From Candidatus Spyradenecus sp. (GTDB lineage Bacteria; Verrucomicrobiota; Kiritimatiellia; RFP12; DVOR01), in contig JAZRAG010000014.1 in the NCBI GenBank assembly GCA_045634445.1, forward strand, positions 15,272 through 79,271: a DNA stretch of 64,000 bases, in the 5' to 3' direction. Position numbers and translations under genes: made by a program. Below the pieces are notes generated by a model. The model was given only the letters and a program-made list of their open reading frames with translations, did not search any database and was not told the origin of the DNA. Below, in pieces: positions 13,093 to 20,560 of the stretch (the stretch's first letter is position 1; the number at the start of each line of letters is the position of its first letter).

Positions 13093-13190
13093 AACTAAAG
13101 CGAAAAGGAAAGCCTAACATCACAGAAATTAACCACAAAACACACAAAACACACAAAAAATATGTGGGGGCTTCGCGCCCCCACCCCCGT
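13093..13190 (+). repeat. Copy B (5' fragment) of the repeat family: CA-tract plus GC hairpin
   Basis: cagaaactaa...aaccacaaaacacacaaaacacacaaaaaatatGTGGGGGCttcgcGCCCCCAC in the same orientation as copy A. Lies in the sulP promoter region, upstream of the tracrRNA. Confidence 0.5.
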
Positions 13191-13239: not shown

Positions 13240-13364
13240 CTCTTAGACGCAAAAATATGAGATAGTAGGGGTGAAAGAAATGGAGAAAATAACGGATTTT
13301 TGAGTGTTATTTCGTTGACATCTTGAGTGGTTGTGTTAAAGTATAGATGTAAGGATGGGGGTAT

Positions 13365-13436
13365 AAAAAAGCCCTATACGGAGTACGTATAGGGAAGTCT
13401 TTCGACTGCGGCATATAGCCTTGTTGTGAAAAGACG
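13365..13436 (-). ncRNA. Predicted tracrRNA of the type II-C system (anti-repeat, nexus, terminator); the 5' end may extend to about 13460
   Basis: The minus strand reads (CUAGAAUUAAGCC)GUCUUUUCACAAC-AAGGCUAUAUGCCGCAG-UCGAAAGACUU-CCCUAUACG-uacuc-CGUAUAGGG-CUUUUUU. GUCUUUUCACAAC is a 13/13 complement of the repeat 5' end GUUGUGAAAAGAC. AAGGC..GCCGCA resembles the Neisseria Cas9 nexus. A 9-bp terminator stem is followed by U6. Confidence 0.6.
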
Positions 13437-13441
13437 GCTTA

Positions 13442-13471
13442 ATTCTAGCCCATCGAGGAAATGTTTGTCAA
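13442..13471 (-). promoter_or_regulatory. Candidate sigma70 promoter for the tracrRNA (-35 TTGACA, 18-nt spacer, -10 TAGAAT), divergent from cas9 and overlapping its 5' region
   Basis: Read on the minus strand. The predicted TSS falls at the start of the 13-nt perfect anti-repeat. Confidence 0.35.
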
Positions 13472-13486
13472 TAAGGAATTTTAATT

Positions 13487-16400
13487 ATGAAGCGTTTAGG
13501 GCTTGATTTGGGTACGTCCTCTTTGGGGTGGGCGATTATTGATGATGAGTTAATGAATACTGCGCCTACGGGGTCTGCTGCGCCGAATCCGATTGATTGT
13601 GGTGTTGTTATTTTCCCAGAGGGTATGAACCGTGATAAATCGGATAATTTATCTTCGCCGGCAGCAACGCGTCGTATGGCACGTGCTGCGCGCCGTTTAA
13701 TTTATCGTCGTAAGTTGCGTAAGTTTCACTTGCTTCGTGCGTTGATGGATGCTGGGATGTGTCCTTTGAGTGAAGCGGGGTTAAAAGCATGGAAGGATGA
13801 GGGTAAATACCCTGTGAATGATGAAGCATTTATGCTTTGGCTTCGGTCTACCAATGAAAGTAATCCCTACGCAGACCGCAATGCTGCAGCGACGGCGCCA
13901 GTGGATAAATTAGTTTTGGGACGCGCCCTTTATCATATGGCACAGCGTCGAGGATTTAAGAGTTCTAAAAAAGAGCAGTTTGAAGCTTTGAGCGCGGAAG
14001 ATGTTACTGAACAGAAAGCGAAGAAGGCTTCAGAGGCTACGCAGACAAAGCAGGCGATTGATACATTAACCGCAGAGCTTGAAAAAGAGCATTTGACACT
14101 TGGGCAGTATTTTTATCGCCTTTTCCAGCAGAATGTGAAAGAAATTAATGCGGCAGGTTCTGGCGAAGTAAAGACCGAGCGTGTTCGTGGTCGTAAGACG
14201 GGACGTATTGAACACTATCAAAAAGAATTTGAACGTATTGCTGAGGTTCAAGGCCTTTCAGATGAATTGCGTGAACGTTTTGCTTCAATTCTTTTCTTCC
14301 AGCGTCCGCTTCGTATTCAACGTCATACCGTTGGGTATTGTGCACTTGAGAAAGGTCAGAATGCGCGTAAGTATCGTCGTTGCTTAAAGAGTCATCCTGA
14401 TTTTGAATACTATCGTGCACTTTGTTTCTTGAACAATCTTCGCATTGGTGAAACGTTAGCTTCGGGGAAAGATCGTCTTCAGCGCAATGAAGGCCGACGT
14501 TTAACCGATGAAGAACGTCAAAAGGTGTTAGCCGCTCTTCAGCGTATGAGTTCGTGTACGATTGAAGACCTTTTGGGTAAAAAGAAGCCGTTACTTGACA
14601 AGAAGTACTACACGAATTATCGCCCGAAAGATGATGCGCCAGTGATGGAAATTCGCGCACGTCTGACGGATTTGGGCATTCCTGAAGATAAGTGGCAGAT
14701 GGCATTAAATGCGGCAGTTAACTTTGATGACTTAGAAAAATTACTTGCTTGGGCACAAAAGCCAACAACTTTGGGCCTTTCTGCAGCAGATGCTCGCACA
14801 TTTGTGAAGATTCGCTTCTCTACAGATCGTGCAGATTATAGTTTGCATGCTATTCGCAAGATTATCCCTTATTTAGAGCGTGGATATACCTTGCGTAAAG
14901 CGACTTTCTGTGCAAAATTGGGTGACATCATTCCGAATTATGCAGAAAAACAAGAGGCTGTCCTTCAAGGTTTGTTAGATTGTGAAGCGCGCTATGAAGC
15001 GGAAAAGGAACGTAAAAAGCAAAATCAACGCCTTAAGGTACATCCGCTTGAGGGATATCATTACAAGAATTATTTGGCTACGACTTGGGATGTTTCGGAA
15101 GAAGCATATAAACAATTGTATGTGGATATTACAGAGACGGATAAGTCTAATCCTGTGTTGCCTCCTGTGGATTTAGAGTCTATTCGTAATCCGCTCGCTT
15201 GCCGTTCGCTAACGGTTTTGCGTCGTCTCGTTAACACCCTTCGCGCAAATGGTAAAATTGATGGGGATACGAACATCTTTATTGAGTTGGCACATACGGT
15301 GAATAGTGCAAATCAGTGCCGTGCGATTGAGATGTATCAGTTAGAGCAAAAGAAGAAGCGCGAAGAGGCAGTCCTGAAACTTCAGGAAATTATTCAAGAG
15401 CACAATCTTAAGATTGCGATTAACGAAGACTCTATTTTGCGTTACATTCTTTGGCAAGAGCAGAATGGTTGTTGCGTTTATACCGGTCAATCGATTGGCT
15501 TAAAGGCAATGCTGACGGAGTGTGATATTGAACATACAATTCCGCGTTCGCGTGGCGGTACAAATGAACTTGATAACCTCACACTTTGCACCAGCCATTA
15601 CAATCGCAATGTGAAGAAAGGAAAAATCCCAACGGAGTGTCCGAATGCCTCCGAAGAGTGGTATGACCCTGAAACAAAGATGACTTATCCTGCACTTGAA
15701 TTAAGCACACCGATTAAGAATTGGAAAGATGAACTTCAAAAGCTTAGGAAAGAGTTGGACAAAAAGCCTAAGCGTGGGGGTGACATCTCGGCTTATAATG
15801 ACGCACGTAAGCGTTGGCTTGTGAAGCAGATGAAGTGTACCTATTTGAAAAAGAAACTTAAATCATTTGAACTCTCTGCCGAAACTGTAGGTGGCGATGG
15901 CTTCATGCCACGTCAAATGGTTGACACAGGCATTATTACCACACAGGCTGTGAAATTCTTAAAGAGCCGCTATGAATATGTCTTTACGCGTAATGGCGCG
16001 GTAACCGCAGCTGCGCGTAAGGCTTGGGGAATCCAACACGAAGATGAAAAGAAGTCTCGTATTGATCATGTCCATCACGCAGTAGATGCATGTGTGATTG
16101 CGGCATTGGATACGAAAGCTTTCACGGATATTTGTTCTCAATTGGGTAAAGACGAAACCTTTACGCGTTGGAATACCGTTGTTTGTGAGCCTTATCCAGA
16201 CTTTGCACAACGCGTGAATGATGCAACCGAAAGCATTTTGGTACGCCACCTTCCTACGAATCGCCAGACCAAACCGATTGATAAGCGCCGTCAACGTATC
16301 CCGTTGTCGGTTGTGAAACGCCTTAAACAAGCACAATTATCCTCTGCAAAGGCAAAAAAGACATCGACCATCCGCGGTAGTCTCCATAATGATACGATTT

Positions 16401-17173
16401 ATGGAAAGATAAAGCTGAATGGTGAAGAAGTTGTCGTGCTCCGTAAGACAATTACAGCAGCAGGTACAGACTTTAAGAAGTGGGTGACACAAGGCAATGT
16501 CGTTGACAAAGGCGTTTGCGATGCACTACGAGCGCAAATCGCTGCTTATGAAGCGCAAGGCATTGCAGAAAAGGATTTGCCTAACCAAGTCTATAAAATG
16601 CCATCGGGTATTCCCATTAAGAAAATCCGTATTAAGGTGGCAAAACCCAAAAATCCTGATGCGATTCGTCAACAAGTCTTTGTACCCAAAGCGCCTGTTT
16701 ATGGCTCAGGAAGCGACATCCTTGGATTTAATGTCTGTAAAGATGCGAAGGGTAAACTTGTCGCAGAGCAGATCTCTTTGCTTGATGAGGCAAAGTCTTT
16801 CGGAGAAGGGATGTCTTCTGTGGACAAGTGTTTCAGCATCTATCCCATGCAACTTGCTTTCGCATATGAAAAGACTCCAGAAGAATTAAAGGCGCTTTCT
16901 TCCCGAGAATTGATGAAACGATTGTATGTCGTACGTCAAGTGGAAGAAGGTCAAGTCACATTTTACTATCACCGAGAAGCGAGAAGAGCGAAATTGCTTG
17001 CTGAAGAGTTAGAGAAAAACGGAAAGTCAAAAAAAGGTGAGTCTAAATTAAACTTCATTATCCCAGAGCGGAAACTACGAGTTGCAAGAGGTGTATTCTT
17101 AGACCACATGCTTTATGAAGGGGTTCACTTTACACTTTCAATGGATGGTGAGGTAGAATGGCTCAATGATTAA
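13487..17173 (+). CDS. cas9: Cas9 (type II-C), 1228 aa
   Basis: RuvC-I MKRLGLDLGTSSLGWAII. Arg-rich bridge helix (RRMARAARRLIYRRKLRK). HNH (DIEHTIPRSRGGTNELDNLTLCTSHYNRNV). RuvC-III (HHAVDACVIAAL). RBS aagga 9 nt upstream. Confidence 0.95.
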   Translation: MKRLGLDLGTSSLGWAIIDDELMNTAPTGSAAPNPIDCGVVIFPEGMNRDKSDNLSSPAATRRMARAARRLIYRRKLRKFHLLRALMDAGMCPLSEAGLKAWKDEGKYPVNDEAFMLWLRSTNESNPYADRNAAATAPVDKLVLGRALYHMAQRRGFKSSKKEQFEALSAEDVTEQKAKKASEATQTKQAIDTLTAELEKEHLTLGQYFYRLFQQNVKEINAAGSGEVKTERVRGRKTGRIEHYQKEFERIAEVQGLSDELRERFASILFFQRPLRIQRHTVGYCALEKGQNARKYRRCLKSHPDFEYYRALCFLNNLRIGETLASGKDRLQRNEGRRLTDEERQKVLAALQRMSSCTIEDLLGKKKPLLDKKYYTNYRPKDDAPVMEIRARLTDLGIPEDKWQMALNAAVNFDDLEKLLAWAQKPTTLGLSAADARTFVKIRFSTDRADYSLHAIRKIIPYLERGYTLRKATFCAKLGDIIPNYAEKQEAVLQGLLDCEARYEAEKERKKQNQRLKVHPLEGYHYKNYLATTWDVSEEAYKQLYVDITETDKSNPVLPPVDLESIRNPLACRSLTVLRRLVNTLRANGKIDGDTNIFIELAHTVNSANQCRAIEMYQLEQKKKREEAVLKLQEIIQEHNLKIAINEDSILRYILWQEQNGCCVYTGQSIGLKAMLTECDIEHTIPRSRGGTNELDNLTLCTSHYNRNVKKGKIPTECPNASEEWYDPETKMTYPALELSTPIKNWKDELQKLRKELDKKPKRGGDISAYNDARKRWLVKQMKCTYLKKKLKSFELSAETVGGDGFMPRQMVDTGIITTQAVKFLKSRYEYVFTRNGAVTAAARKAWGIQHEDEKKSRIDHVHHAVDACVIAALDTKAFTDICSQLGKDETFTRWNTVVCEPYPDFAQRVNDATESILVRHLPTNRQTKPIDKRRQRIPLSVVKRLKQAQLSSAKAKKTSTIRGSLHNDTIYGKIKLNGEEVVVLRKTITAAGTDFKKWVTQGNVVDKGVCDALRAQIAAYEAQGIAEKDLPNQVYKMPSGIPIKKIRIKVAKPKNPDAIRQQVFVPKAPVYGSGSDILGFNVCKDAKGKLVAEQISLLDEAKSFGEGMSSVDKCFSIYPMQLAFAYEKTPEELKALSSRELMKRLYVVRQVEEGQVTFYYHREARRAKLLAEELEKNGKSKKGESKLNFIIPERKLRVARGVFLDHMLYEGVHFTLSMDGEVEWLND

Positions 17174-18071
17174 ACGGACGCTTTGCTTCTCAACTCCAGG
17201 AAAACTCCGTCTTCACTTGCGCCAACTTCTTTGGTGTGGTGAAGATGGAAGAGAAGCAAGTGTGCCCATCGAAGATCTTGGGATTGTCATCTTAGAGTCC
17301 CCCTTAATCACTGTCAGTATGGCGCTATTACAAGCGCTAACAGAGGCATGTGTCGCGGTTGTCCTCTGTGATGCGTCCCATCTCCCTTCAGGCTATCTCC
17401 TTCCACAAGTATCACATACCCTTGCGAGTCGCTTTTTGAGAAATCAAATTGAACTTACAGATGCTCAATCGAGGCGCTTGTGGCAACAAATTGTTATCCG
17501 TAAAATCCAAAATCAAGCGTCTGTAATTCGGACATTAAATCCGCAAAAGGCGAACGAATTATGTGAGATGGCAGAGTTTGTTAAACGAGGAGATGTCACA
17601 AATATTGAAGCGCAAGCTGCGAAACTCTATTTTACGGCTTTTCCAATTTCAGAAGATGTCTTTCATCGTTCGCGTTATGGTACCATGCCTAATGCGGCAT
17701 TAAACTATGGATATGCGATTTTAAGAGCCGCAGTCGCACGATGTTTAGTAGCCTCAGGATTGAACACCACCTTAGGAATCCATCATCGTAATCAATATAA
17801 CCACTTTTGCCTTGCAGATGATGTGATGGAGCCCTATCGTCCCTTTGTAGATGCAATCGTCTTAGAGCATTTAGAGGCGTTCGAGAAAGCAGAAGAACCT
17901 ACGCAAGTCTCCACAAAAGGAAAGCAAATCCTCTTGCCGTTCTTGACAATGGATGTGCGAATAGGAGAATCAACGCGACCTCTTTTTAACGCCCTTCAAT
18001 TAACCACAGCATCTCTCGCACGATGTATCTGTAATGAACAAAAAACGCTCGAATTACCATCATTCCCATGA
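17166..18071 (+). CDS. cas1: Cas1 integrase
   Basis: Overlaps cas9 by 8 nt. Cas1-like conserved acidic and His residues. Position between cas9 and cas2. Confidence 0.9.
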   Translation: MIKRTLCFSTPGKLRLHLRQLLWCGEDGREASVPIEDLGIVILESPLITVSMALLQALTEACVAVVLCDASHLPSGYLLPQVSHTLASRFLRNQIELTDAQSRRLWQQIVIRKIQNQASVIRTLNPQKANELCEMAEFVKRGDVTNIEAQAAKLYFTAFPISEDVFHRSRYGTMPNAALNYGYAILRAAVARCLVASGLNTTLGIHHRNQYNHFCLADDVMEPYRPFVDAIVLEHLEAFEKAEEPTQVSTKGKQILLPFLTMDVRIGESTRPLFNALQLTTASLARCICNEQKTLELPSFP

Positions 18072-18415
18072 GTGAAGTTGAGTTTACAGCGATTAACCAT
18101 TACAAAGCAATGTGGCTTTACGCACTCTTTGATCTCCCAACAGAAACTAAACGGCAACGAAAAGCCGCTGCACAGTTTCGTAAAGGCCTCTTGCAAGATG
18201 GCTTTACAATGCTTCAATTTTCTGTGTATATTCGCCATTGTGCATCAAGAGAAAATGCAGAAGTTCACATTAAGCGCGTGAGAATGATAACACCAGAAGA
18301 GGGGCGTGTTGCGATTCTTGCGGTAACGGATAGACAATTCGATCAAATGGTCATTCTTTACGGGAAAAAAGAAAAACCTGCGCCACCTGCGCCAGTTCAA
18401 CTAGAACTTTTTTAA
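18068..18415 (+). CDS. cas2: Cas2
   Basis: 115 aa. Overlaps cas1 by 4 nt. Immediately precedes the array. Confidence 0.85.
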   Translation: MSEVEFTAINHYKAMWLYALFDLPTETKRQRKAAAQFRKGLLQDGFTMLQFSVYIRHCASRENAEVHIKRVRMITPEEGRVAILAVTDRQFDQMVILYGKKEKPAPPAPVQLELF

Positions 18416-18463
18416 ACAAAAAAAGAAACCGATTGACTCTTTTTTGAAGAAATCAATCGGTTT
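18416..18463 (-). terminator. Strong minus-strand intrinsic terminator between cas2 and the array; it would stop antisense pre-crRNA read-through
   Basis: Minus strand reads GAAACCGAUUGA-(16-nt loop)-UCAAUCGGUUUC followed by UUUUUUUGUUU. On the plus strand the same hairpin has no U-tract. Confidence 0.6.
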
Positions 18464-18477
18464 CTAAGTCTTCGGTA

Positions 18478-18498
18478 TGCTCCTTAAGATGTTATACA
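18478..18498. repeat. Inverted partial copy (18/21) of the CRISPR repeat, 21 bp from the first repeat: a hairpin partner, anti-repeat-like element
   Basis: ctccttaagatgttatacaat versus cttcttaagatttgatacaat (the reverse complement of the repeat's first 21 nt), with a 19-nt gap to the repeat at 18520. Confidence 0.5.
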
Positions 18499-18519
18499 AT
18501 AAAGACTTATGCATTCAAT

Positions 18520-20336
18520 ATTGTATCAAATCTTAAGAAGATGTCTTTTCACAACTCTCAAGCGGATTGACGTTACATCTCCAAAATTGTATCAAATCTT
18601 AAGAAGATGTCTTTTCACAACTGTACTTTACTAACATTAAGTGTCAGATTGATTGTATCAAATCTTAAGAAGATGTCTTTTCACAACTCTATATTGTTTA
18701 GTTTTGCAATCTCTTTGATTGTATCAAATCTTAAGAAGATGTCTTTTCACAACTGGCGGCCATTGAGACCTTCCGTCGTCAGAATTGTATCAAATCTTAA
18801 GAAGATGTCTTTTCACAACAACCTTCTTCAAGAATAGATTTAGAAACTTATTGTATCAAATCTTAAGAAGATGTCTTTTCACAACTGAAGAAGCGTATTC
18901 TTATGTTTGTTCTCAATTGTATCAAATCTTAAGAAGATGTCTTTTCACAACTCCTTTAGTCTATTCAACTGTTCAACGAGAATTGTATCAAATCTTAAGA
19001 AGATGTCTTTTCACAACACTTTGAACATTATCAATGTTTCGCAGACTATTGTATCAAATCTTAAGAAGATGTCTTTTCACAACTTCCGTTTAGCTGCGCT
19101 TTTCCTCTCTTCCATTGTATCAAATCTTAAGAAGATGTCTTTTCACAACACGAAAACCCAGAAGCAATCTTTTAAAGAATTGTATCAAATCTTAAGAAGA
19201 TGTCTTTTCACAACTCCGAACGGGAAAAAATGGTTTCAATCGTAATTGTATCAAATCTTAAGAAGATGTCTTTTCACAACCGTTATTTCAGCACTTTCTC
19301 GCGGTTTTGAATTGTATCAAATCTTAAGAAGATGTCTTTTCACAACTTTTAGTTCACAAACAGGAACATTAAAAGGATTGTATCAAATCTTAAGAAGATG
19401 TCTTTTCACAACCTATCTGCCTTTCCCTGGGTCTAGTTATGAATTGTATCAAATCTTAAGAAGATGTCTTTTCACAACTATAACTGGTATGCTGCTTGGT
19501 GCGGTGTCATTGTATCAAATCTTAAGAAGATGTCTTTTCACAACCTAAAACCCAGAAGCAATCTTTTAAAGAGAATTGTATCAAATCTTAAGAAGATGTC
19601 TTTTCACAACTGCAGTATCGCGTGCCGATGCTGGAGGCGGATTGTATCAAATCTTAAGAAGATGTCTTTTCACAACACCGCCCGAAGCAGTAATCGAAGC
19701 TAGTGCATTGTATCAAATCTTAAGAAGATGTCTTTTCACAACTGCGCTTGTAGCCATTGGTGGGATCAGCCAATTGTATCAAATCTTAAGAAGATGTCTT
19801 TTCACAACCACCGGCTCAAGATTGCGCGTGCTTTAGGGATTGTATCAAATCTTAAGAAGATGTCTTTTCACAACCTCCGGTGGCCCCATCTACCGCCTCG
19901 CCATATTGTATCAAATCTTAAGAAGATGTCTTTTCACAACATACCGACGTTGATTTCAATCAGTGTCCGGATTGTATCAAATCTTAAGAAGATGTCTTTT
20001 CACAACAATTGATGAATGTTGATATTTCAGATATTAATTGTATCAAATCTTAAGAAGATGTCTTTTCACAACAATCAGTTGGTATACAGGTTCTGGAATC
20101 GCATTGTATCAAATCTTAAGAAGATGTCTTTTCACAACAAAATATACTCGCAATACACAAAAGACCCTATTGTATCAAATCTTAAGAAGATGTCTTTTCA
20201 CAACTATCATGGCGACAATTAAAACAACAATAGCATTGTATCAAATCTTAAGAAGATGTCTTTTCACAACTACTGACGCGTTTAATTATATTTGTTCACA
20301 ATTGTATCAAATCTTAAGAAGATGTCTTTTCACAAC
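18520..20336 (-). CRISPR. CRISPR array: 28 copies of a 36-bp repeat (GTTGTGAAAAGACATCTTCTTAAGATTTGATACAAT in the inferred crRNA sense) and 27 spacers of 29-30 bp
   Basis: Exact 66-bp periodicity. All repeats are identical. The orientation call (minus strand) rests on the GTTGT...ACAAT termini, an extended -10 TGATACAAT at the repeat 3' end, the anti-repeat of the upstream tracrRNA, and the minus-strand terminator at 18416-18463. Confidence 0.95.
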
Positions 20337-20560
20337 CAACGCATCTCTTGATGTGTCTGTCGCCCCTTTGGGGCTGGAAAAGCGCGAGCGCAAGATGACG
20401 AGAAATGGAGATGTGCCCATTTCGAGCAGCGTGCAAGATTCGTGCGACTCGTGGAAATCCCTCGTCGTCCTGCGGAGCACCTTTTTGTGTGTTTTGTGTT
20501 TTTTGTGGTTAGTTTCTGTGCCGTCAGGCACTCGTATCCTGTGGTTTATTTCCTCACGTG
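20337..20560 (-). repeat. Copy C of the repeat family (inverted relative to A and B), abutting the terminal CRISPR repeat
   Basis: The reverse complement aligns block-for-block with copy A (cagaaactaaccac...cacaaaacacac, gtgctccgcagg, ttccacgagtcgca, gctcgaaatgggcacatc, catttctcgtcatcttgcgct, cagcccc-aaggggcgacagacacatcaagagatgcgttgg). The gcgttgg end lies 0 bp from the repeat. Confidence 0.5.

Follow-up and report, generated by a model that had tools for sequence, protein, structure and literature searches.

The locus described here raises the question of why a partial, inverted copy of a repeat of the CRISPR type (short palindromic repeats, clustered and regularly interspaced) stands between cas2 and the repeat array. 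The locus is a type II-C CRISPR-Cas9 system of a Kiritimatiellae bacterium and lies within a 64,000-nucleotide (nt) stretch of Candidatus Spyradenecus sp. contig JAZRAG010000014.1, which is called the window in the following and in whose coordinates all positions are given. An earlier note on this DNA had suggested that the copy belongs either to a second small RNA resembling the trans-activating CRISPR RNA (tracrRNA) or to a long terminal hairpin. We favor the hairpin: in the model developed below, to which we give about an even chance, the copy, a 21-mer, would be the 3' arm of a cis-acting RNA hairpin formed between the leader and its adjacent repeat at the acquisition-leader end of the array. 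As a conserved structure, this leader-repeat hairpin is supported; its functions we infer.

The inverted repeat copy and its predicted partner

The sequence CTCCTTAAGATGTTATACAAT was found on the plus strand at 18480-18500, 64 nt past the cas2 stop codon and separated by 19 nt (18501-18519) from the first repeat of the array (repeat 1). The earlier note had placed it 2 nt off, at 18478-18498, and had correctly counted an 18/21 match to the reverse complement of nt 1-21 of the repeat as read on the plus strand (CTTCTTAAGATTTGATACAAT). A search of the 64 kb with up to three mismatches returned the 28 repeats on the minus strand and the 21-mer as the sole plus-strand site, 100 dinucleotide shuffles gave an expectation of 0.00 matches to the pattern, and the same inverted arms were recovered by a separate repeat search.

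The CRISPR RNAs (crRNAs) of the locus are minus-sense, because their polarity is fixed by the tracrRNA gene upstream of cas9. This gene contains a near-consensus promoter (TTGACA-18-TAGAAT, 13471..13442, minus strand) and, about 7 nt past it, the anti-repeat GUCUUUUCACAAC (13435..13423), a perfect complement of 13 nt at one end of the repeat, which is followed on its 3' side by the scaffold AAGGCUAUAUGCCGCAGUCGAAAGACUU and a terminator hairpin (13394..13372) with a U-tract. The same architecture recurs in seven lineages (the window and the loci L001, L090, L101, L110, L108 and L109) with anti-repeats of 12-13 nt. In crRNA sense, the repeat reads GUUGUGAAAAGAC...UGAUACAAU, and a promoter scan of 18300-18800 detected AAGACA-16-TACAAT with an upstream TG (an extended -10 element) on the minus strand of every repeat scanned, as the earlier note had assumed. 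All 28 repeats are identical, and the embedded promoter of repeat 1 (AAGACA-16-TGATACAAT) spans 18547..18520. Such repeat-embedded promoters are a published design of type II-C systems (PMC12080349, PMC12477760). Firing on the minus strand toward cas2, the promoter-like site in each repeat would send all crRNA-sense transcripts across repeat 1 into the interval next to cas2. In Neisseria meningitidis, the transcript starts at the sixth nt after the repeat (PMC12477760), and because we applied this rule to repeat 1, an RNA from this interval is expected to start at about 18514, within the 19 nt between repeat 1 and the 21-mer.

At about 70 nt, the tracrRNA is very short, and its duplex with the crRNA would comprise only about 13 base pairs (bp). 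Directly 3' of the 13-nt tracrRNA-binding segment, at crRNA-sense nt 14-26, every repeat contains a mini-hairpin of 5 bp (AUCUU-CUU-AAGAU; e.g., 18530-18542), three of whose five pairs show compensatory changes across lineages (ACCUU/AAGGU, CCC/GGG). The combination of a short tracrRNA with a 13-nt anti-repeat and a self-folding repeat may interest designers of compact guide RNAs.

A reading of the 21-mer on the plus strand is extremely unlikely at this crRNA polarity, which follows from the tracrRNA as well as from the repeat promoters. It would make the 21-mer either the anti-repeat of a plus-strand tracrRNA, as the earlier note had considered for plus-sense crRNAs, or, by its TACAAT (18495-18500), a leader promoter driving the array plus-ward; its complementarity to plus-sense repeat nt 1-21 and the orientation of the TACAAT toward the array are as this reading demands. 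The anti-repeat GUCUUUUCACAAC fixes the crRNAs in the opposite sense, however, and the element runs directly into the array with neither a scaffold nor a terminator downstream on the plus strand. Further, the promoter scan found no plus-strand promoter there, a TG and a conserved -35 element are absent, the repeat copy has lost its extended -10 TG in relatives of the window's group (TTATACAAT / TCATACAAT), and the plus-sense duplex is the weaker one.

The nature of the interval itself, which the earlier note had missed, became evident from a related species whose Cas2 is annotated as Kiritimatiellae and for which ten strain-level loci share their flanking genes on both sides. Among the strains of this species, four pairs have cas-distal spacers in common and differ in the cas2-proximal ones. 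Spacers are therefore gained next to cas2, and the 104-nt interval between cas2 and the array is the spacer-acquisition leader, situated at the 3' end of crRNA transcription. The literature on type II-C systems, in which new spacers enter at the leader toward which crRNA transcription runs (PMC12080349, PMC12477760), is in accord with this.

Folding of repeat 1 together with the 21-mer yielded a hairpin as both the minimum-free-energy and the centroid structure (-19.8 kcal/mol, z-score -4.0), which none of 200 shuffles matched. In this predicted structure, leader nt 20-40 (18500..18480) pair with the 3' part of repeat 1 in crRNA sense (about 21 nt, 18540..18519, i.e., repeat nt 16-36) in two helices, of 11 bp and 8 bp, that flank a 3x3 internal loop; the 19-nt leader-proximal segment closes the structure, and the tracrRNA-binding repeat nt 1-13 are left unpaired. 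The partner is the repeat half that is unused by the Cas9-bound crRNA; the earlier note had described it as the half removed in canonical type II processing. A predicted terminator follows 15 nt on, with a stem (GAAACCGATTGA / TCAATCGGTTTC, 18425-18436 / 18453-18464) that folds as proposed before. In minus sense, it has the layout of an intrinsic terminator, a stable hairpin (18464..18425) directly followed by a U-tract, with the A7 at 18418-18424 appearing as U7. A custom scan listed it in the minus sense only, the plus sense being without a U-tract, while a consensus terminator scan did not list it at 18418..18464, its loop probably lying beyond the limit of that scan. The whole minus-sense leader RNA folds with -30.4 kcal/mol (z-score -5.6).

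Conservation in related lineages and in distant type II-C loci

Orthologous loci, whose comparison the earlier note had suggested, came from exact-protein look-ups, and a metagenome scan with Cas2 gave a single locus. We distinguished ten lineages (the window, L001, L089, L088, L085, L090/L002, L101/L103, L110/L115, L108 and L109) with Cas2 proteins 68-99% identical to that of the window. The inverted element is kept in all ten: each has a minus-sense leader segment complementary to the 3' 16-24 nt or so of its own repeat, starting about 19-21 nt past repeat 1, except that the duplex begins at leader nt 42, in a second inverted copy (unit B in Table 1), in L089 and likewise at leader nt 42 in L088. 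Of the two possibilities raised in the earlier note, the degenerate inverted repeat forming a long terminal hairpin is therefore the best supported, being both the predicted fold in the window and a pairing kept in ten lineages, albeit weakly in L088. Evaluated by RNAduplex against dinucleotide shuffles, the pairing of the leader with the 3' 24 nt of its own repeat reached z-scores of -3 to -9 in 11 of 12 loci.

The repeats vary among the lineages, and the leaders track them: the paired segments are CCTTAAGAAGG and TCTTAAGG in L101, CCCTAAATGGG and TTAGGG in L110, and ATTATATC and GATATAA in L108. The own repeat was the best or second-best partner of the leader in eight of the ten lineages, and none of 20000 permutations equaled the diagonal of the leader-by-repeat energy matrix. 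Compensatory changes were found at repeat position 33 (C-G in 10 cases, U-A in 2) and at position 35 (A-U in 7, C-G in 4), and position 36 is split between U-A (6) and U-G (6). In a MAFFT alignment, the loop-adjacent helix was 95% paired, and RNAalifold recovered the same helix unaided; over the whole structure, 83.9% of the cells were paired, compared to 36-51% when the partner column was slid by one to three columns.

The conservation stands out against the neutral background. At fourfold sites of cas1, identity to the window is 31-33% for L088, L085 and L090 and about 20% for L101, L110 and L108, which is the level of chance, so neutral sites are fully diverged. Despite this, the loop is identical at 15-18 of 19 positions and the element at 15-17 of 22 (68-77%) in L088, L085 and L090. 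These values make it very unlikely that the element is a functionless relic, i.e., the decayed remains of an inverted repeat or of a tracrRNA gene that stood between cas2 and the array in an ancestor. Its appearance would suit a relic, with half-length, imperfect copies in two to three tandem units, a central stretch of 6-7 nt mismatched in most relatives and unit B nearly erased in the window. Against this, fourfold sites are at chance (0.31 in L088, L085 and L090; about 0.2 in L101, L110 and L108), yet the element persists in the nearer lineages and distant lineages keep the complementarity to their own, changed repeat. Compensatory pairs are present, and no trace of the anti-repeat part GUCUUUUCACAAC or of a nexus follows the element.

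Several other interpretations of the interval were tried and dropped. In the window, the partial palindromy of the repeat lets the 21-mer pass by eye for a decayed direct repeat; this reading needs six gap positions and fails in L101 (inverted match 16/16) and L110 (13/14), and Smith-Waterman scores in the window were 27 for the inverted and 14 for the direct orientation. Unit B is weak in the window and clear in L089, L001, L088 and L090; units A and B are supported, but the repeat similarity of a third tandem unit C (a 19-nt segment) is weak, and we do not claim it. In the free leader RNA, a stem that brackets the 21-mer (UAAGUCUU / AAGACUUA) seemed compensated in L002 and showed three central mismatches in L089 and L085, so it is not conserved. 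Under Rfam gathering and E-value thresholds, the sole match was a sub-threshold one to the Bacteroides small RNA BTnc231 (27 bits vs. a gathering cutoff of 80.4; 18422-18559, minus strand), which spans repeat 1, the leader hairpin and the terminator and was treated as a chance resemblance of a generic hairpin plus terminator.

Pairing in crRNA sense is the more stable in 10 of 12 loci, exceeding plus-sense pairing by 8-10 kcal/mol in L108, L109 and L115. Transition mismatches in crRNA sense comprise 13 G·U vs. 5 A·C, or about 10 vs. 2 without shared events, in a small and phylogenetically non-independent sample. An asymmetry of this kind would follow from RNA pairing in crRNA sense but not from recognition of DNA, and it bears on the proposal that the element is a DNA-level signal. 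In this proposal, the inverted copy 19 bp upstream of the integration site would be read by Cas1-Cas2 or a host factor and direct or orient integration at repeat 1. The interval is indeed the acquisition leader, and the whole of it is under purifying selection, most strongly in the 19 nt adjoining the repeat, which are a probable leader-anchoring sequence for Cas1-Cas2. The junction of leader and repeat is palindromic (TTCAAT on one side, ATTGTA on the other), a single protein surface that reads both copies would also make the element covary with the repeat, and the one-sense stability is not seen in distant loci (see below). However, the complementarity of 16-21 nt exceeds a typical protein site, its distance to the repeat ranges from about 1 to 37 nt in distant loci, the one-sense G·U preference of the window's clade is not predicted by DNA recognition, and the leader requirement in type II-A, as cited in PMC8092290, covers about 10 bp adjoining the repeat. 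We regard the DNA-level signal as improbable, though not far-fetched.

To extend the comparison beyond this clade, we used a panel of distant type II-C loci, mostly from Bacteroidota and with Cas1 proteins 42-50% identical among the matches listed (profile search of genome contigs, Cas1 alignment). The first 65 nt of the crRNA-sense leader were paired with the 3' 24 nt of the cognate repeat in 46 loci; in this test, arrays were self-called, RNAduplex ignores loop geometry, and some loci are related. Cognate pairing was stronger than with non-cognate leaders (-10.6 vs. -8.0 kcal/mol, Wilcoxon p 6e-6, 46 loci), and compared to shuffled leaders the mean z-score was -1.15 (t-test p 5e-6, 47 loci), with eight of the 47 loci at p <= 0.02 where about one was expected. 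The 5' 24 nt of the repeat showed no cognate effect with the leader in the distant loci (p 0.52). The complementary segment lies about 1 to 37 nt from the repeat, and example loci with a leader complementary to the 3' part of the last repeat are L020, L068, L076, L036 and L048 (panel L005-L084).

A terminator-like hairpin in crRNA sense occurs within 200 nt of the cas2-proximal repeat in 38 of 50 type II-C loci; a terminator at this end appears to be a general type II-C feature, and the window appears ordinary in that respect. Its relation to the leader-repeat hairpin differs between lineages. The window lineage, L108 and L109 have a separate terminator 15-30 nt past the hairpin, whereas in L101 and L110 the element is directly followed by a U-tract (U6AU5 and U5AU3, respectively), and in the distant L020 and L068 the repeat/leader stem runs directly into U5. 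Because the U-tract directly follows the stem, the leader-repeat hairpin is probably the terminator itself in these four loci. As a general type II-C terminator, the leader-repeat hairpin was rejected: only 7 of 55 loci have a terminator-like structure with its 5' arm in the repeat, and most, including the window, have a separate one.

Possible functions and their alternatives

Hairpin and terminator together would constitute a two-part module that forms the 3' end of the array transcripts. This module would set and stabilize the 3' end of the precursor of the newest crRNA, and it would keep array-born transcription from running antisense into cas2-cas1-cas9. Because the tracrRNA anti-repeat comprises only 13 nt, the predicted hairpin occupies exactly the repeat part not bound by the tracrRNA, and nt 1-13 of the newest crRNA would remain free.

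The same short anti-repeat is the starting point of another reading, in which the leader yields a trans-acting second anti-repeat RNA (a "split tracrRNA"). A leader RNA of about 95 nt (approximately 18514..18420) with one or two anti-repeat-like units would pair with the 3' half of every repeat in the pre-crRNAs and would supply a long duplex, as a substrate for RNase III and 3' trimming, beyond the reach of the 13-nt tracrRNA anti-repeat. The predicted promoter and terminator and the anti-repeat-like segment between them have the order and sense that such an RNA needs, anti-repeats of just 12-13 nt in seven lineages leave repeat nt 14-36 without a partner, the window lineage has the two tandem units A and B, each of the identical repeats is a potential target, and the G·U bias fits RNA-RNA pairing in crRNA sense. 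On the other hand, cis pairing with the adjacent repeat is kinetically favored, the geometry of hairpin plus U-tract in L101, L110, L020 and L068 is meaningful in cis only, L089 and L085 have not kept the stem by which the free RNA would expose unit A in a loop, and the leader contains no Cas9-binding scaffold. Reportedly, 3' processing of type II-C crRNAs is dispensable in N. meningitidis (Zhang et al., 2013), which we also counted against a trans-acting RNA. Overall, we judge it improbable.

The cis-acting hairpin also has points against it. The start site, the termination and the fold of the leader transcript are predictions, the partial palindromy of the repeat inflates inverted matches, and the lineages, few in number, are not phylogenetically independent. 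L088 shows weak pairing (z-score -0.9) and L085 modest pairing (-10.7 kcal/mol), and the distant loci are without a significant strand bias (p 0.25). Template switching with "quasipalindrome correction" could yield covariation without selection on RNA. Moreover, the covarying mini-hairpin in the repeat (nt 14-26) competes with the leader for the same nucleotides, transcripts from repeat 1's own promoter are without the 5' arm and cannot form the hairpin, and in the window lineage the hairpin is not next to the U-tract, a separate terminator being present.

Taken further, the data allow a tentative generalization, which we consider possible rather than probable: type II-C systems may generally have an RNA hairpin of leader and last repeat at the 3' end of the array transcript, with a job differing from that in types II-A and VI. 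In this Kiritimatiellae clade, with its tracrRNA anti-repeat of just 13 nt, the leader anti-repeat, acting in cis or possibly in trans from the otherwise useless promoter of the last repeat, might supply the missing half of the duplex and either set the 3' ends of crRNAs or favor the newest spacer. Type II-C arrays are unusual in that each repeat is a promoter, transcription is directed at the leader and cas genes, and the newest spacer is the last to be transcribed. The element bears on how type II-C transcripts end, on what shields the cas operon from antisense RNA made by the array and on whether the newest spacer is favored. The conserved, covarying hairpin of leader and last repeat, often with a terminator after it and sometimes part of one, is a concrete and testable element in this context.

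The features of the locus are compiled in Table 1. The open reading frames of cas9, cas1 and cas2 are contiguous at 13487-18415 without csn2 or cas4, and the array starts 104 nt past cas2. The assignment to type II-C agrees with this gene set of cas9, cas1 and cas2 only with an adjoining array, and also with the predicted transcription from repeat-embedded promoters toward the leader and the addition of spacers at the last-transcribed repeat.

Table 1. Features of the type II-C locus and of its leader in window coordinates.
Feature	Position	Strand	Remarks
tracrRNA gene, canonical	13364..13471	-	promoter, anti-repeat, scaffold and terminator upstream of cas9
cas9	13487..17173	+	1228 amino acids (aa); NCBIfam TIGR01865, 380 bits vs. 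cutoff 100
cas1	17166..18071	+	301 aa, type II/NMENI class; NCBIfam TIGR03639, 266 bits
cas2	18068..18415	+	115 aa, stop codon 18413-18415; NCBIfam TIGR01573
Intrinsic terminator, crRNA sense (predicted)	18418..18464	-	stem arms 18464..18453 / 18436..18425, then U7 18424..18418
Unit B	18460..18479	-	second, degenerate inverted copy of the leader-proximal repeat half; overlaps terminator stem base
Unit A (21-mer)	18480..18500	-	AUUGUAUAACAUCUUAAGGAG in minus sense; 3' arm of the predicted leader-repeat hairpin
Leader-proximal 19 nt	18501..18519	-	hairpin loop; most conserved leader part
Repeat 1	18520..18555	-	leader-adjacent; spacer insertion site; last repeat transcribed
CRISPR array	18520..20336	- (crRNA sense)	28 identical 36-nt repeats and 27 spacers

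The entire tracrRNA-cas9-cas1-cas2-array locus is flanked by a pair of 48-nt inverted repeats (13112-13159 / 20482-20529), which are 90% complementary and rich in CACAAAACA. Just these two copies occur in the window and none in 115 fetched loci, and they may mark the boundaries of an inserted or invertible cassette. Two spacers (19150-19178 and 19545-19574, one of them 29 nt long) share a 26-nt core (AAAACCCAGAAGCAATCTTTTAAAGA) and differ at their ends; apparently, one target region was acquired twice. At the opposite array end, the cas-distal, first-transcribed repeat of L002, L091, L098 and L099 ends with CACCGT instead of CACAAC, its first three crRNA-sense nt being mutated, and the array of L003 has collapsed to a single hybrid repeat carrying this mutation. 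The mutated cas-distal repeat fits the published idea that the spacer-less extra repeat of type II-C arrays decays. Finally, nt 1-6316 of L100 contain a cas2 gene whose product (97 aa, an N-terminally truncated call) is 99% identical to that of the window and after which Mu-like phage structural genes take the place of the array; repeats of this family were not found in this stretch, and the arrangement may represent a prophage insertion or an assembly chimera.

Comparison with known systems

Compared to the anti-repeat of a tracrRNA, the element is alike in being an inverted partial repeat near the array that precedes a terminator and in having the predicted shape of a small RNA, and we take it to match the sequence expected of the 5' part of a full-length anti-repeat such as that of N. 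meningitidis. It differs in pairing with repeat nt 16-36 instead of nt 1-13, and the true tracrRNA is encoded elsewhere in the locus. As for the defining parts of a tracrRNA, predictions place a promoter-like site in repeat 1 and a terminator in the leader, which might yield a discrete small RNA. The leader contains nothing resembling GUCUUUUCACAAC, the anti-repeat to the 5' repeat part retained in mature crRNAs. Also, the Cas9-binding AAGGCUAUAUGCCGCAGUCGAAAGACUU module and an AAGGCU-type nexus are absent from the leader, their place being taken by the linker or unit B and the terminator. The second tracr-like RNA of the earlier note is plausible as a minus-strand transcript of about 95 nt, but by definition not a tracrRNA.

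The element can also be compared to a degenerate terminal repeat, with which it shares the position of a partial, mutated repeat copy at an array end. It is distinguished from it by its inverted orientation, by lying at the leader end instead of the trailer end and by its distance of 19 nt from the repeat instead of 30.

Other counterparts are the leader-repeat hairpins of types II-A and VI, with which the element shares complementarity beyond chance and conservation. The hairpin of type II-A (Liao et al., 2022, as summarized in PMC12080349 and PMC13187072) blocks the tracrRNA on a spacer-less extra repeat and thereby suppresses extraneous crRNA. In both cases, leader RNA pairs with the leader-adjacent repeat beside the newest spacer, and an inverted partial repeat creates the structure in cis. 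The leader of type II-A, however, is located at the 5' end of the pre-crRNA, whereas the leader described here lies at the 3' end, pairs with the repeat of the newest spacer and leaves the 13 nt for the tracrRNA free. Because of this different placement and the free 13 nt, the extraneous-crRNA logic of type II-A does not apply. The tracrRNA-binding part of a spacer-less extra repeat is not sequestered here, because the paired repeat follows a real spacer and its nt 1-13 stay unpaired. The hairpin of type VI (Cas13) systems blocks Cas13 on the first repeat, at the 5' end, and is enriched over shuffled controls (PMC13187072). Ours resembles it as a predicted hairpin of transcribed leader and adjacent repeat with the same kind of enrichment, and differs in standing at the 3' end instead of the 5' end of the array.

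For arrays whose extraneous crRNA comes from the last repeat (VI-A), PMC13187072 reports no hairpin, and for type II-C it names only upstream terminators, guide-trapping hairpins and repeat mutations. The type II-C analyses of PMC12080349 covered only the cas-distal flank and report no leader-repeat hairpin. In the literature searched, the coverage of which was incomplete, we found no description of a hairpin between an acquisition leader and the last-transcribed repeat. Leader-repeat hairpins are known for types II-A and VI, where they influence the set of crRNAs produced, and the 3'-end version of type II-C is so far undescribed in that literature.

A known arrangement within type II-C is that of the Rho-independent terminators flanking the arrays (Feussner et al., 2025, PMC12080349), which likewise insulate by a hairpin plus U-tract and follow the same logic from repeat-embedded promoters. 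Those terminators, upstream of the first repeat to be transcribed, prevent outside transcription from entering the array. The one described here comes after the last repeat and would keep array transcription out of the cas operon, and in some lineages its 5' arm is the repeat itself.

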